A stretch of DNA of 13,886 nt, taken from a bacterium (GTDB lineage Bacteria > Zhuqueibacterota > Zhuqueibacteria > Oceanimicrobiales > Oceanimicrobiaceae). Position numbers and translations under genes: made by a program. The notes under the pieces are model-generated. The model ran no database searches, was not told the origin of the DNA, and was given only the letters and a program-made list of their open reading frames with translations. Positions 60-11,824 of this stretch are shown piece by piece. How positions within the stretch are numbered: position 1 is the first letter of the stretch; every line of letters begins with the position of its first letter. The stretch spans positions 1 to 13,886 of the forward strand of contig JBHHXT010000118.1 in NCBI GenBank assembly GCA_046757165.1, written 5' to 3'.

Positions 60-383
60 TCACGGAATCCGGGCAAGCTTGATCGCCGTCCCCTCGACGT
101 AGACTTGATAGCAGCCCAGATCGGCCTGGTGCGGCCCTTCCAACCCCTTGCCGGTTTTCAAGTCAAACCTGGCGCCGTGCCAGGGACAGGTGACCACCCC
201 ATCTGCGACCTCGCCGGTGCTCAACGCCGCCTGGCGGTGGGGACATAAATTGTCGACAGCAAAGAACTCGCCGTTGACTTTGAAAATTACGATTTCTTTC
301 TGCTTGAAATAGACCACACGACGGCTCGTCGCTACAAAGTCATGTGTGGTTGCCAGCGTTGGCGGATGATTCTCGTCCTGCAT
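60..383 (-). CDS. Rieske [2Fe-2S] ferredoxin (NirD/dioxygenase ferredoxin-like), 107 aa
   Basis: Both Rieske boxes present: FAVDNLCPHRQA (CxH) and VTCPWHGARFDLKTG (CxxH). Same strand as, and downstream of, the sigma-54 activator. Confidence 0.9.
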   Translation of the reverse strand: MQDENHPPTLATTHDFVATSRRVVYFKQKEIVIFKVNGEFFAVDNLCPHRQAALSTGEVADGVVTCPWHGARFDLKTGKGLEGPHQADLGCYQVYVEGTAIKLARIP

Positions 384-514: not shown

Positions 515-548
515 ACTAGACTACCAGACCGTTCAACCAGACCGTTCA
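510..548. repeat. 13-bp-period tandem repeat overlapping the activator stop codon
   Basis: ACCAGAC at 510, 523 and 536. ACCAGACCGTTCA is duplicated exactly at 523-535 and 536-548. Confidence 0.7.
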
Positions 549-2504
549 CTGCGAAATATTGTACTCTCTCATCTTGCGCCACAACGTGGTTCTGCCAATG
601 CCCAGAATCTTGGTGACCAGATCATAGTTCCAGTTGTGCTGCCTGAGCAGAGAGGCGATGTGGCGCTTCTCCAGCTCCTTGAGCGTCAGATCGCCTGAGT
701 AGAGATTGTGATGTGAAGGCTTGCTGTTGGTCAACGCCGGCGGCAGATCTTCCACGCTCAGGAACTGACCGGAAGCAAGCGCGACGGCTCGTTCGATCGC
801 ATTCTCCAGCTCGCGTACATTGCCCTGCCAGGAATAGTCGCACAGCAGCTTCTGCGCTTCCTCATCCAGGCCATAGACTGTTTTGTGGATTTGAGTCGCA
901 TACTTCTTGATGAAGAACTCTGCCAGGGGCAGAATGTCCTCGGTGCGTTCCCGCAGCGGGGGCAGCGTAATCTGAATGACGTTTAGACGGTAATATAAAT
1001 CCTTGCGAAATCGACCTTCGTCGACCATTTGCGCCAGGTCCCGGTTGGTTGCGGTGATGACGCGCACATCGAGCTCGAGCGTTTCGTTGCTGCCCACCGG
1101 TTTGACTTCGCCTTCCTGCAGGAAGCGCAGCAGTTTCACCTGCGTCGCCGGCGAGGTCTCGCCGATCTCGTCAAGAAAAATTGTACCGCGGTTGGCGGCT
1201 TCTATCAGCCCCTTCTTGTTGCTGCTGGCGCCCGTGAAAGCCCCTTTGACGTGCCCAAACAGTTCGCTCTCCAGCAGCGTCTCAGGAATTGCGCCACAGT
1301 TCACCGCGATGAAAGGATGGTTGACGCGCGCGCTGTGTTCGTGAATCGCCTTCGCCACCAGCTCCTTCCCCGTGCCGCTCTCACCATCGATCAACACGGA
1401 AATGTCGCTCTGGGCAATGCGGGCCACCAAATCCATGATTTTCTGCATGGCCTGACTCTTGCCGATGATGTTGCCAAAGCGGTAGTGTTCGTTGGTTTTC
1501 ACCCAGGCATAAAAACTGCTGACTTCGCGCTCGATCAGGCGGTGGATGGAAACGGTAATTTTCTCATGCTCCTTGAGATTGGCGTTGACGATGTCTTCCA
1601 GGTCATCCTTGTCGTAGGAATAGACATTGTAGTGTCCGGTCAGCTTCGGCTTGTGGTCAGCCGCGTCAGGTCTCTCCAGCAGAGAAACCAGCAGCAGAGG
1701 CGCATTGTGGCGCTTGTGCATAATGCGAGAAATCTGGAGATCGAGCAGGGCCTCGCTCACCTGCTCGTCAAACAACAAGATCATGTCAACGCTCGGCACG
1801 ACCGCGGCCAGGGTTTCGCGTGCCACCAGCTTGCCACCGTAAGCGTCACATACCGCCTGAATCTCCTGACCCGTGTCGATAAACAGCAGGTGCCCGGCGT
1901 TTTTCTCCAGCAGTTTCTTTGCAAAGGGGACACACTCCTCCGTCTTCGCTGCAATCAGGGCGGTGTGGTTCTGAAGATCGCCAAAGATTTTCTGCGCCAA
2001 ATCGGAGACCACAGACGCCGGCGTGGTGGCGTTTCGTTGCAAATTATGCTCGATGCGCGTCTTTTCCGCCAACCATAAGCTGCGCTGATACAGCTTGCTC
2101 AGATGGGGCCCGATCAAATTGGCCTCGCGCGCTGCCGCAAACTGCTCGCGGAAACTCTGGATGTCCGGATCCGTAGCGCCCAATTCCCGGAGGCCAATCG
2201 CCCGCCGAAAGAACTCACGCAACGCCTCTGCCCCATCTTTGCCAGACAGATGTCTTGACAATTTTCTGCCGGACATGCCCAGGGTTCTTTCAAAGGCTTT
2301 TAGAAGCTCGGATTCGACCCTCTTTCGCTGTTCCGTTGATACGAACGTCTCGAGGACGTCCACACCCCGGCACACAAATAGCTCACTGACCTCAGTCTTT
2401 TGTGCAAGCTTGCGCAAAAACTCAGGGGTGACAGTCACATTCTGTACGATCTTGCCCCGGACTTCTGCTGTGTGCGAATCTATGCCAAAACAATGTATGG
2501 GCAT
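546..2504 (-). CDS. Sigma-54-dependent transcriptional activator (bEBP) with an N-terminal degenerate glutamyl-tRNA reductase (HemA)-like region, ~652 aa
   Basis: C-terminal half has Walker A GESGTGKE, LLESELFGHVKGAFTGA, Walker B FLDEIGE, FRKDLYYRLNV, WQGNVRELEN and a Fis HTH ILGIGRTTLWRKM. N-terminal half follows HemA landmarks (FGIDSHTA, EFFRRAIGL, LSKLYQRSLWLAEKTR, SDLAQKIFGDL, NVYSYDKDDLEDIV, EREVSSFYAW). ATG at 2504 is preferred over the track start at 2585 because it matches the HemA N-terminus and lies 7 nt past the upstream stop. Confidence 0.9.
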   Translation of the reverse strand: MPIHCFGIDSHTAEVRGKIVQNVTVTPEFLRKLAQKTEVSELFVCRGVDVLETFVSTEQRKRVESELLKAFERTLGMSGRKLSRHLSGKDGAEALREFFRRAIGLRELGATDPDIQSFREQFAAAREANLIGPHLSKLYQRSLWLAEKTRIEHNLQRNATTPASVVSDLAQKIFGDLQNHTALIAAKTEECVPFAKKLLEKNAGHLLFIDTGQEIQAVCDAYGGKLVARETLAAVVPSVDMILLFDEQVSEALLDLQISRIMHKRHNAPLLLVSLLERPDAADHKPKLTGHYNVYSYDKDDLEDIVNANLKEHEKITVSIHRLIEREVSSFYAWVKTNEHYRFGNIIGKSQAMQKIMDLVARIAQSDISVLIDGESGTGKELVAKAIHEHSARVNHPFIAVNCGAIPETLLESELFGHVKGAFTGASSNKKGLIEAANRGTIFLDEIGETSPATQVKLLRFLQEGEVKPVGSNETLELDVRVITATNRDLAQMVDEGRFRKDLYYRLNVIQITLPPLRERTEDILPLAEFFIKKYATQIHKTVYGLDEEAQKLLCDYSWQGNVRELENAIERAVALASGQFLSVEDLPPALTNSKPSHHNLYSGDLTLKELEKRHIASLLRQHNWNYDLVTKILGIGRTTLWRKMREYNISQ

Positions 2505-2511
2505 GGCCGTT

Positions 2512-3336
2512 CTATTGAAAGTTGTGGAATTTTGAGAAGAACGTCGTGACAATGATAAACGAAAAAAGTAACCAGTTGAATCCAACGACCGAAACGATAG
2601 CGGCGCGTTTTCCTTGCCATCCGATGGATCTTCTGGTCACAAAATGCACCAGATAGATGGCCCAGGAAACTAAGACTGCCAGCAGCTTCGGGTCGAGCAC
2701 CCACCGGCCTTCCCAGACGCTTAGACCCATGTATACTCCCATCAAAATGCCAACACTCACCAGCACCAATCCGATATTCACCGCCTGGTTGCTCAACCGG
2801 TCAAAAAACTCCAGCGAGGGCAGCCGTTCAAAGAAAATCCCCAGCTTCTTGCTCTGCATTTCCCGGGAAAGCAGAATGTACATGACACTTGTAATGAAAG
2901 AAATGGTGAACGCGGCGTAAGCCGATATCATGATCGCCACGTGCACCTCGAAAAACAAGCGGGTCAGCACAGATGCGAGGGGTTGGTCGATGTTGATGAA
3001 CAGATTGGAAATACACTGGAGCAAAACGATGACCGGCAAAAAGAAAACGCCCATGGTCATTTCTTTGAGCCGGATTTCCAGAATGAGGTAAACCAGGACG
3101 AAAAGCCAGGCAGAGGTGGTCAACACCATGAATGTGTTCCCCACCGGCAGATGACCTGAGTGCAAGCCCAATAGCAGCAGGTACACCGAATGCACCCCCA
3201 CCGCGCTCACCATCCATCGCCGAGTCAAGGTTGCCATGTGCTCTGTTTTGTGTCGAAACAGCGAGAGATAATACCAAAAGCTGGTCATGTAAGCGCCTAA
3301 GAGAAACCATGAGAATAAGCCGAGCAGTGTCTTCAC
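2512..3336 (-). CDS. ccsA: Cytochrome c assembly (CcsA/HemX-family) polytopic membrane protein
   Basis: About 8 hydrophobic segments, WWD-like motif WEGRWVLDPK, LPSLEFFDRL, and His at VGVHSVY, FEVHVAI and C-terminal FHNF. GTG at 3336 is preceded by GGGGAAGGA; TTG at 3351 is the alternative start. Confidence 0.85.
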   Translation of the reverse strand: MKTLLGLFSWFLLGAYMTSFWYYLSLFRHKTEHMATLTRRWMVSAVGVHSVYLLLLGLHSGHLPVGNTFMVLTTSAWLFVLVYLILEIRLKEMTMGVFFLPVIVLLQCISNLFINIDQPLASVLTRLFFEVHVAIMISAYAAFTISFITSVMYILLSREMQSKKLGIFFERLPSLEFFDRLSNQAVNIGLVLVSVGILMGVYMGLSVWEGRWVLDPKLLAVLVSWAIYLVHFVTRRSIGWQGKRAAIVSVVGFNWLLFSFIIVTTFFSKFHNFQ

Positions 3337-3381
3337 GGTATCCTTCCCCAAGTATTTTCGAGACTTGTTCAGATGTGACTT

Positions 3382-3396
3382 TTTTCATTTTGAAAA
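3382..3396. promoter_or_regulatory. Palindrome, candidate bEBP upstream activating sequence or autoregulatory operator
   Basis: TTTTCA-TTT-TGAAAA, a perfect 6+6 inverted repeat about 125 bp upstream of the candidate -24 box. Confidence 0.4.
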
Positions 3397-3520
3397 TATG
3401 AAATCAGGACTTGAAACGCAAGAAGTTTGAACATTTGATTGCAGGGTCGCAGCGGGCTGCAGTACGCGTCAAAAGCGGCTGGCACAAGCACGTAATCTGT
3501 GTGAAATATTTGTTTCATTT

Positions 3521-3537
3521 TGGCAACGTTTCTGCTA
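3521..3537 (+). promoter_or_regulatory. Candidate sigma-54 (-24/-12) promoter
   Basis: TGGCAACGTTTCTGCTA has exact GG-N10-GC spacing with TGGCA and TGCT flanks. It lies in the intergenic region divergent from the bEBP operon. Confidence 0.6.
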
Positions 3538-3549
3538 TATTGGGCTTTT

Positions 3550-3668
3550 GTGAAACGGCAAATGTGAAACAGCCAAGCCGGAACCTGGGAGAGCACTTGC
3601 TTGCTATTATTTCCCCAGCTCTCACCCCACGTTTCACGTTCACATCTGCCGTTTCACGTCTCACGTCT
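3550..3668. repeat. Inverted repeat built from heptamer units
   Basis: GTGAAACGGCAAATGTGAA (3550-3568) / TTCACATCTGCCGTTTCAC (3639-3657), 18/19 match. The right arm has ~7-nt periodicity: CACGTTT CACGTT CACATCT GCCGTTT CACGTCT CACGTCT (3628-3668). Confidence 0.7.
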
Positions 3669-3685
3669 AGCAGAGATAAACCAGA

Positions 3686-4381
3686 ATGAACAGGATCCGC
3701 TCTTTGCGCAAGCTGTGCTCGTTCATCTTTCGTGAGCACCGGGACAAGCTGCTCGGCAAACGCTTTCAGCCGAAACACAAACCCTGGATGAGGTACCGCG
3801 AGATTGAAGTCGTGCAAGAAATCTTGCGCAACCTGAACCCCGTATCGTGTCTGGAGTGGGGCGCCGGCTATAGCACGCTGTTTTTTCCACCGCAGCTCGC
3901 CCGCAAGGCCTCCTGGCTGGCGGTAGACCATGACGAGGCGTGGGCCCGGGAGATTCAGAACCAGCAGCCGAGGGCGATTGTTCGGATTCAGTACGTCGCC
4001 CCGAACCATTTTCCCTGGACCGACCCGTGGCAGGACGGCGCCTACCCGGACCTATTTGACTACGTAGAATATCCGCAGCAATTCGCCCCTTTTGACTTCA
4101 TCCTGGTCGATGGGCGTGCCCGAAACGACTGTATCAGAAAAGCGGTTACGCTCATCAAACCGGAAGGGATTGTCATCCTGCATGACGCCAATCGAGAGTA
4201 TTACCACCCCGAAACGGCCGCGTTTACGCACCAGATGCTTCTCAAGGGGTATCGCAAACATGCAGGAGGCCTCTGGATCGGCAGCCGGGCGCGCGCCATA
4301 GAAGAGGTGCTGGATGTGCAATTTCACCAAAGGGTCTGGCGACTTTGCCGACTCACGGGCGGAGCCAGGATTAAGTGTTGA
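3686..4381 (+). CDS. Class I SAM-dependent methyltransferase-like protein, 231 aa
   Basis: Motif I CLEWGAGYST, acidic AVDHD, FDFILVDGRAR and LIKPEGIVILHDA, typical of small glycan-cluster-associated methyltransferases. Confidence 0.8.
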   Translation: MNRIRSLRKLCSFIFREHRDKLLGKRFQPKHKPWMRYREIEVVQEILRNLNPVSCLEWGAGYSTLFFPPQLARKASWLAVDHDEAWAREIQNQQPRAIVRIQYVAPNHFPWTDPWQDGAYPDLFDYVEYPQQFAPFDFILVDGRARNDCIRKAVTLIKPEGIVILHDANREYYHPETAAFTHQMLLKGYRKHAGGLWIGSRARAIEEVLDVQFHQRVWRLCRLTGGARIKC

Positions 4382-11119: not shown

Positions 11120-11167
11120 GAACCCGGGCCGGTGGCTGACTCAGAAGGAATCTCGATACGGGCACTC

Positions 11168-11824
11168 ATGTTTCTGTTTAAGCAGCTACAACATCTGAAA
11201 CACAAGGCTGAACGCGAAACGCCTGCCGGGGAGAAATCCATTCTGAACCGGTCCGTGGACACGCTGAAAAGGAGTGATCTCGCGGAACAAGCCGTTGGCA
11301 TCGGTGACCGGATGCCCGTCTTTGTGCTCGAGAATGCCGCGGGGGTTGCCATGAGCTCGCAAGAGTTGCTTGCCGACGGTCCGTTGGTGATCAATTTCTA
11401 CCGCGGCAAGTGGTGACCGTTTTGCAATTTGGAGCTGGGAGCTCTGAGAAAAGCCTTGCCAGAATTTCATGCACTCGGTGCGACGCTCGTTGCCATTTCG
11501 CCCCAGTTGCGAGAATTCAACCAGGCGGTCAGCGAGAAACGCCGACTGAATTACGACATTCTGGCGGACCCGGGCAATCGTGTCGCAACCCAGTTCGGCA
11601 TCAGCTACCCGGTCGACGACAAGCTGCGGCAACTTTATCTCAGCCATGGCGTGGACCTGCGCAAATACAATGGCGATGACTCCTGGACGCTTCCCATGCC
11701 TGCCCGGTTTGTTATGGATGCGGCAGGAACTATTCGGTACGTAAGCATCAATCCTGACTACCGCGACCGCGCCGAGCCTGCTGATACCGTGGCGGCGTTG
11801 AGGAATGGGGTGCTGAAGTGGTAG
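11168..11824 (+). CDS. Peroxiredoxin-like (AhpC/TSA, thioredoxin fold) probable selenoprotein with a UxxC motif, ~218 aa
   Basis: Track ORFs 11132-11416 and 11429-11824 share one frame and are separated only by TGA 11414-11416. Read-through gives GPLVINFYRGKW-U-PFCNLELGAL, matching the family motif FYRGxWCPxCNxEL. ATG 11168 is preferred; GTG 11132 is possible. Confidence 0.85.
11429..11447 (+). promoter_or_regulatory. Candidate bacterial SECIS hairpin
   Basis: UUGGAGCU-GGG-AGCUCUGA forms an 8-bp stem (2 G-U pairs). The G-containing apical loop starts 21 nt after the UGA. Confidence 0.6.

Follow-up and report, generated by a model that had tools for sequence, protein, structure and literature searches.

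Sigma-54-dependent enhancer-binding proteins can be controlled in trans by a partner protein, as in the NifL-NifA and PspA-PspF systems. Here we analyse a stretch of 13,886 nt (the window), contig JBHHXT010000118.1 of assembly GCA_046757165.1, in which a gene for a membrane protein of the HemX/CcsA family precedes one for a bacterial enhancer-binding protein (bEBP) whose input domain resembles the heme-synthesis enzyme HemA (glutamyl-tRNA reductase, GluTR or GtrR). We put at roughly 0.7 the probability that the two proteins form a heme-homeostasis switch, in which the activator is kept in check by a heme-sensing HemX, so that a post-translational feedback becomes transcriptional control of heme supply. 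Below, genomes, loci and contigs carry G-, L- and C-numbers, respectively, the window being C118 of G000.

The closest described arrangement is that of HemX and HemA themselves. In Staphylococcus aureus and Bacillus subtilis, HemX lowers GtrR/HemA levels post-transcriptionally (PMC5801465, PMC10991733; statements drawn from these two papers refer to excerpts of each). The gene hemX adjoins gtrR in 106 of 113 hemX genomes and never occurs without gtrR among 978 genomes (PMC5801465). Within the excerpts of the same paper neither a HemX partner nor heme binding is demonstrated, and how HemX controls HemA is still given as undetermined in the excerpted part of a 2024 review (PMC10991733). The first-pass annotation of this DNA, made from the letters alone, knew of no described bEBP with a HemA-like input. 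Full-text literature searches (supplements and most subscription journals being outside their scope) listed no paper that reports either a fusion of HemA to an activator or a heme operon controlled by sigma-54, and the words heme, hemA, porphyrin and KSB1 are absent from the main text of a cross-phylum study of sigma-54 regulons (PMC12316311).

Results

A HemA-derived module fused to a sigma-54 activator

The first-pass annotation had described a CcsA/HemX-family gene 7 nt upstream of a gene whose N-terminal ~335 aa follow HemA and whose C-terminus is an intact bEBP, and every part of this description held. The hemX gene lies upstream and ends 7 nt before the ATG of the fusion (Table 1). The hemA model TIGR01035 matches residues 6-339 of the fusion with an E value of 5e-30 and 104.7 bits, below its cut-off of 209.55, and the match ends at model position 337 of 416, short of the C-terminal dimerisation domain. 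Pfam places GlutR_N at residues 12-151 (40 bits, cut-off 27) and, weakly, Shikimate_DH at 168-305 (E 0.028), followed by Sigma54_activat at 346-512 (PF00158, E 1.6e-74), AAA_lid at 518-599 and HTH_8 at 607-648 (PF02954). An AlphaFold2 model of residues 1-340 (predicted local distance difference test, pLDDT, 89) has as its best match in the PDB, using Foldseek, the GluTR of M. kandleri (1gpj, E 2.5e-18, TM score 0.66), and the matches ranked 1 to 7 are all GluTR, giving the module a GluTR fold. The failure of HemA similarity by which the annotation's idea could have fallen did therefore not occur, either by profile or by structure.

To compare the catalytic residues, 45 fusion domains were aligned with 37 canonical HemA of the phylum. 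All of the canonical enzymes (37/37) have the catalytic Cys of the STCNR motif, versus 0/45 of the fusions, TCNR being replaced by GVDV in the fusion of the window. The remainder of STCNR and the GExQI motif are also lost, as is the second Gly of the NADPH glycine motif, which is kept in 4% of the fusions and for which the window protein reads AAKTEE. The long helix at 299-336, which leads to the dimerisation domain in GluTR, leads into the AAA+ domain in the fusion. An active GluTR was rejected on these grounds, that is, for lack of the catalytic Cys, of the NADPH glycine motif and of the dimerisation domain. Judged by its residues, the module is a catalytically dead HemA, an enzyme copy kept for its regulatory surface. 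The conserved part of this surface comprises E41, G104, G132, K172-I173-F174-G175, R265-P269, N293, D301 and W334. I173 is kept in 98% of the fusions, in 92% of 13 diverse HemAs that adjoin hemX and in 41% of 29 orphaned HemAs; for G175 the corresponding values are 91%, 69% and 10%.

The activator half carries a Walker A (GESGTGKE, 374), GAFTGA (421), a Walker B (FLDEIG, 443), RKDLYYRL and RELEN, and hence the full set of AAA+ motifs including the arginine finger and sensor II, along with a Fis-type helix-turn-helix (HTH). GAFTGA is present in 39 of 41 family members; in the fusion of G011 it is replaced by GAVAEA, and the hemA promoter of G011 falls below threshold. Consistent with a sigma-54 activator, rpoN is present in G000, and -24/-12 promoters with upstream sites stand at plausible targets (see below). 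Among the matches listed, no NCBIfam activator model reached its cut-off for the fusion. As the annotation had stated, the Pfam scan reported no receiver, PAS or GAF domain in the fusion, and no kinase was found among the 13 open reading frames of the window that were scanned.

Distribution and pairing with hemX

A profile of the N-terminal domain matches 72 of 167 genomes of the phylum (tallies include G158 and G162, two unpublished genomes that no further claim relies on), with a fusion-type protein in 65 and a 5'-cut copy in G069. The AAA+ domain is in frame in all of the 63 loci examined out of these 65. In 62/62 assessable loci the gene directly upstream, in the same orientation, is hemX (the locus of G062 is cut by a contig end). 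Outside the 167-genome set, fusions are also carried by G167 and G168. In a tree, 45 fusion domains form a single clade with a support of 0.995; the HemA lineage from which the module arose is not resolved by this tree, in which support around the fusion clade is weak. The fusion is not unique to one assembly, then, and the adjacency of ccsA is conserved across homologous fusions, two points on which the annotation had made its proposal depend. Its recurrence in many other genomes shows that it is not an assembly artefact. One contig of a sequencing run, possibly the source run, covers positions 736-3700 of the window without differences, and the junction of the fusion is spanned by none of the contigs of a second run. 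Architecture and gene pairing are essentially certain.

In the non-fusion genomes G075, G084 and G085, ccsA lies directly before a canonical hemA, and most hemX matches in other phyla precede a canonical hemA too. In fusion genomes with a mapped hemA locus, the enzyme gene has no hemX neighbour; in G000, where the annotation had suggested to look for it, a separate full-length hemA heads a hemA-C-D-E-N-H-Y-B operon on C124 with no ccsA or hemX beside it. With hemX beside the pseudo-HemA and the enzyme gene devoid of it, HemX therefore went with the dead copy. The earlier idea that a duplicated ccsA-hemA pair had been co-opted is supported with one refinement: hemX did not share in the duplication of hemA, and it is the enzyme gene that lost its hemX.

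The HemX partner and the predicted complex

H132 and H271 are invariant in 39/39 HemX sequences and align with H761 and H897 of CcsBA (7s9y), which are the periplasmic heme ligands P-His1 and P-His2 (PMC11322641 Table 1). Further candidate heme ligands are H49 (conserved in 90%) and H231 (77%). A crude hydropathy scan gives 7 transmembrane segments, versus eight predicted for the HemX of PMC5801465, and the protein adjoins the HemA-derived fusion, not the enzyme gene. It carries a conserved RLPSL loop on the cytoplasmic side, with RLPSL at residues 171-175; this loop is the predicted docking site. Its WWD stretch is degenerate (WEGRWVLDPK instead of WGxxWxWDPKE), TIGR03144 scores 117.4 of the 187.6 bits needed, and a search of G000 for CcsB/ResB (PF05140) found none while detecting its controls; CcmC- and CcmF-like genes are present in this genome. 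A CcsA-type cytochrome c synthase was rejected because of the missing CcsB/ResB, the degenerate WWD and the TIGR03144 score below cut-off.

Structure modelling of the pair, proposed in the first-pass annotation, predicts a contact. A complex of HemX, heme and residues 1-340 of the fusion scored 0.77 versus 0.00 for the best control, a mark reached by 116/157 solved and 2/215 mismatched pairs in a calibration that holds only roughly here. Between runs, 95% or more of the contacts are the same, and the pLDDT of the partners is at least 77. The modelled interface sets HemX 156-177 (the RLPSL loop) and 239-244 against module residues 169-176, 266-269 and 292-308. Mean conservation at the interface versus overall is 0.71 versus 0.56 for HemX and 0.63 versus 0.38 for the module, values that are not independent of the model because the alignments fed it. 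The only solved relatives found for the membrane protein were two CcsBA-type chains, so that a remembered HemX-HemA complex is unlikely. As modelled, the contact brings together patches that are conserved in each of the two proteins.

Promoter and enhancer signals at heme-synthesis operons

The gene that heads the heme operon, hemA or sirC, is preceded by a -24/-12 site, TGGCA(C/T)-N5-TTG(A/T), mostly 45-95 nt before the start. Its -12 element is TTGA in 20/39 and TTGT in 14/39 promoters (34/39 together), not the usual TTGC, which is why the strict consensus TGGCAC-N5-TTGC failed to detect the hemA promoter. An unbiased count of palindromes in the heme promoters yielded TTTCA-N3-TGAAA in 31/39. 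The full enhancer, TTTTCA-N3-TGAAAA, is often paired, with copies ~20-22 bp apart, and lies 70-220 bp above the promoter. Promoter and enhancer occur together at the heme operons of 37/40 fusion genomes versus 0/6 genomes without the fusion (G069 is treated as a fusion genome; G061 and G052, whose hemA lies at a contig end, and the second hemA-like gene of G007 were dropped). Shuffled controls gave the promoter in a mean of 3.7 and at most 11 of 41, and the enhancer in a mean of 0.7 and at most 3 of 39. The promoter threshold is reached by 268 of the 1864 operon-leading genes of G000. With a matrix trained without G000, the hemA promoter on C124 was the top hit of that genome and the site at 3382-3396 of the window the third; the hemA operon on C124 is the only strict match to enhancer plus promoter in G000. 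The C124 hemA promoter has its enhancer at 3654-3668 and its -24/-12 site at 3808-3821. Of the two genomes outside the set, G167 has one hemA copy with a degenerate tandem enhancer and a promoter, and G168 has a perfect promoter before sirC with no matching enhancer.

The palindrome is also found before hemX in 11/39 loci, all from the family of the window (shuffled mean 0.34), and the copy at 3382-3396 is probably an autoregulation site. Upstream of hemX neither a -24/-12 site on the hemX strand nor a sigma-70-like site was found.

Two other features of G000 were recorded along the way. Between the hemA promoter and the start codon on C124 (L003:3838-3870) there are 3-4 tandem copies of a 10-nt unit (TCACAATCGT). 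Variant palindromes (GTTTCA..TGAAAC or ATTTCA..TGAAAC) with a strong -24/-12 site stand before unrelated genes at C12:28030, C32:15727 and C273:335, and these are likely targets of paralogous activators.

Receptor operons and retention without heme synthesis

The same signals precede operons of TonB receptors. For an operon of a lipoprotein and a TonB receptor, promoter and enhancer are present in 19/20 assessable loci (G162 is left out, and G160 has no upstream DNA). The lipoprotein belongs to no Pfam or NCBIfam family, its Atlas clusters are unnamed, and seven distant matches to it have no enhancer. At L075:7962-11494 (G145) and in its relatives, a lipoprotein with a conserved WPP(M/A)GPP is encoded together with the TonB receptor and a seven-transmembrane (7TM)-like membrane protein; we regard these genes as a candidate unit of heme uptake that may include a new hemophore. 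Genus g71 has the lipoprotein as a tandem duplicate. A second operon type, of a TonB receptor and HmuY, bears both signals in G138, G139, G140 and G141, and both are missing from 6/6 such operons in other non-fusion genomes. In this survey the operon of G135 has an internal receptor gene, and four HmuY-like matches, those of G161 and G057 among them, have no adjacent receptor. These searches found neither operon type in G000.

Neither hemA nor hemC turned up in the draft sequences of 22 fusion genomes, of which 11 have a completeness of 90% or more; the hemC search detected all of its three positive controls, and the hemA search in the 22 genomes ran without one. A receptor operon with the signals is present in 9 of the 11 near-complete genomes. 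G096, a genome in this survey, has hemL beside the fusion. Retention of the pair without hemA and hemC argues that heme itself, and not a pathway intermediate, is managed.

Feature coordinates and neighbouring observations

Table 1. Features of the window discussed in the text (positions in the window)
Feature	Position	Strand	Basis or remark
HemX/CcsA-family membrane protein, 274 aa, GTG start	2512..3336	-	PF01578 E 1.9e-26; TIGR03144 below cut-off
Pseudo-HemA::sigma-54 enhancer-binding protein, 652 aa	546..2504	-	profile matches; ATG at 2504
Catalytically dead GluTR module (as judged from residues), residues 1-339	1488..2504	-	TIGR01035, structure model, alignment
LAQKIFG motif, residues 169-175	1980..2000	-	most conserved surface patch of the module; predicted HemX contact
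AAA+ sigma-54 activation domain and lid	708..1469	-	Pfam and motifs
Fis-type HTH, recognition helix IGRTTLWRK	561..686	-	Pfam; helix nearly invariant across the fusion family
Palindrome TTTTCA-TTT-TGAAAA, single copy, candidate operator	3382..3396	.	~50 nt before hemX start
Rieske ferredoxin gene	60..383	-	3' of the fusion here and in several same-family loci; outside the conserved core

Downstream of the fusion and before the Rieske gene, positions 420-545 hold short direct repeats, and contigs of two runs show here a form shorter by 35 nt, with loose ends as for a dispersed repeat. At 11132-11824 (+) an AhpC/TSA-like gene contains a single in-frame TGA (RGKW*PFC) where the first Cys of a CxxC would stand. 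This is probably one gene for a selenocysteine (UxxC) redoxin, not two genes.

Elsewhere in the phylum, a three-gene block (~430 aa; 190 aa with a weak FMN_bind; 180 aa), to which no family was assigned, accompanies dtxR, FTR1 or feoB in family f1, either in divergent orientation to hemA or in the vicinity of the fusion (L045:1548-4081, L041, L042, L086, L092, L094, L098 and L105). At L283, L284 and L285 (G110, G112 and G111, respectively, none with a fusion), a PAS kinase and a receiver-type sigma-54 activator are encoded divergently from a small coiled-coil gene, with the same TTTTCA-N3-TGAAAA site.

Discussion

In the scheme that we favour, the soluble activator would bind TTTTCA-N3-TGAAAA sites above the -24/-12 promoters of heme-synthesis and/or heme-uptake-like TonB-receptor operons. 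Its input domain would be a dead HemA that kept the HemX-binding surface, and HemX, through its two-histidine heme site, would report the heme status of the cell. When heme is sufficient, heme-loaded HemX would hold the HemA module at the membrane or send it for degradation, with the AAA+ ring blocked; when heme is short, the activator would be released and the genes of synthesis and uptake switched on. We infer the activator to be the reader of these sites, heme to be the signal and HemX to be the inhibitor. The sites are assigned to the fusion through linkage (in many genomes the fusion lies 3-18 kb from the hem operon or adjoins a receptor operon), through the putative autoregulatory sites and through co-occurrence, and the direction of control, with HemX acting negatively, is borrowed by analogy from the HemX-GtrR of B. 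subtilis and S. aureus. A farther-reaching proposal, which we hold to be slightly better than an even bet, is that HemX genuinely serves as a heme receptor in the membrane and binds HemA directly via the LAxKIFG helix, that fusion of this domain freed the enzyme from HemX and put synthesis and uptake under one switch that survives in heme auxotrophs, and that the modelled interface is the HemX-HemA contact of Bacillus and Staphylococcus.

Several observations weigh against the favoured scheme. A loose version of the enhancer-plus-promoter pattern occurs in 123/167 genomes, does not separate fusion from non-fusion genomes and was set aside as evidence, and the strict version is found in 19/101 non-fusion versus 41/66 fusion genomes. 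Three loci of family f9 bear the strict pattern beside an ordinary pair of kinase and receiver-type activator. No fusion was found in G076, which has a tandem enhancer, nor in G140 and G163, which have both signals (the three are 94, 90 and 75% complete, respectively); G087 and G159 yielded no target. One of the signal-bearing receptors, in G161, is FecA/siderophore-like, and the receptor of the lipoprotein operon, whose best NCBIfam match is a heme/hemoglobin model, scores below the cut-off of that model. The position of TM-His1 of CcsBA is not matched exactly in HemX, and LAxKIFG is retained in several HemA enzymes that lost their hemX neighbour. Finally, the genomes are related, so that the counts overstate independence.

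The same parts and targets could be wired differently: HemX without heme might activate, by recruiting the activator to the membrane, or heme might be bound by the HemA module itself, with HemX as no more than an anchor or heme donor. The complex model gives no direction, GtrR of Salmonella and S. aureus binds heme (PMC5801465, PMC10991733), and the invariant histidines of HemX match a periplasm-facing site, away from the cytoplasmic module. We nevertheless consider these variants unlikely, since HemX is negative for HemA in both organisms studied (PMC10991733) and the module shows no invariant His, Cys or Met ligand except the initiator Met, H99 of HemA being kept in 53%. A signal of iron or redox state, with a regulon of general iron supply, would explain the repeated occurrence of dtxR-like, feoB, FTR1 and Rieske genes close to the fusion or to the hem operon, and it would accommodate the FecA-like receptor of G161. 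This is clearly improbable to us: the best-supported targets are heme-synthesis operons and the HmuY operon, the partner keeps its heme-ligand histidines, and the divergent dtxR-feoAB genes on C124 have no promoter match on their strand.

It is less probable still that an activator other than the fusion, but with a similar HTH, reads the signals and that the fusion has other targets. That the palindrome is common to other activators, and that G000 has ~45 bEBP-like genes, some with related recognition helices (IGRTTLYRK on C30, for example), speak for such a reader; the linkage of the fusion to hem and receptor operons, the recurrence of the site before the operon of the fusion itself, the lack of enhancer and promoter at 6/6 hem operons of non-fusion genomes and the near invariance of the recognition helix of the fusion all speak against it. 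Hardly any weight is left for a module that senses a pathway substrate (Glu-tRNA, NADPH or glutamate semialdehyde) or for a membrane protein that makes cytochrome c and has nothing to do with the activator. The module does have the whole GluTR fold up to and including the NADPH domain, but the residues that bind substrate and NADPH are lost and the pair persists in genomes without hemA and hemC; PF01578 does include CcsA, but the G000 search gave CcmC- and CcmF-like genes in place of ccsB/ResB, and the WWD is degenerate. The heme-responsive switch of HemX and activator is the reading that we retain.

The fusion provides a ready reporter for the question of how HemX controls HemA, and names residues to be tested on both sides; if the proposed contact is true, the modelled interface also suggests how HemX grips its classical HemA target. 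It adds a new input domain to those of sigma-54 activators, would put heme supply under sigma-54 and illustrates well how an enzyme can be retained for nothing but its regulatory surface.

Compared with described systems, the locus would share with corynebacterial HrrSA and ChrSA (PMC10991733) a transcriptional heme feedback on heme-synthesis genes via a membrane sensor, whereas the proteins are unrelated and HrrSA/ChrSA use phosphotransfer, the fusion system being kinase-less and dependent on sigma-54. It resembles the HemX-HemA(GtrR) pair of B. subtilis and S. aureus in having a PF01578 membrane protein beside a hemA-like gene and a link to heme synthesis. In contrast to that pair, the neighbour here is a dead HemA fused to an activator, the real hemA is devoid of hemX and the predicted output is transcription; unlike the hemX surveyed in PMC5801465, as excerpted, the gene also persists in genomes without hemA and hemC. 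The module has the long linker helix of GluTR (1gpj, 4n7r, 5yjl) and the same fold in its catalytic and NADPH domains, but has neither the catalytic Cys nor the NADPH glycine motif and carries AAA+ and HTH domains in place of the dimerisation domain. HemX has the PF01578 core of CcsBA (7s9y) with the P-His1 and P-His2 positions conserved, and differs from it in the absence of a CcsB partner, the degenerate WWD, the inexact match at TM-His1 and the extra conserved RLPSL loop. With NifL-NifA and PspA-PspF the system has in common an AAA+ domain with GAFTGA, a Fis-type HTH, upstream palindromes and no phosphorylation input, and it departs from them in its GluTR pseudoenzyme input, its integral membrane partner of a heme type and its putative heme-supply targets. 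Regulators of this class are known, but not with this input module, partner and regulon.

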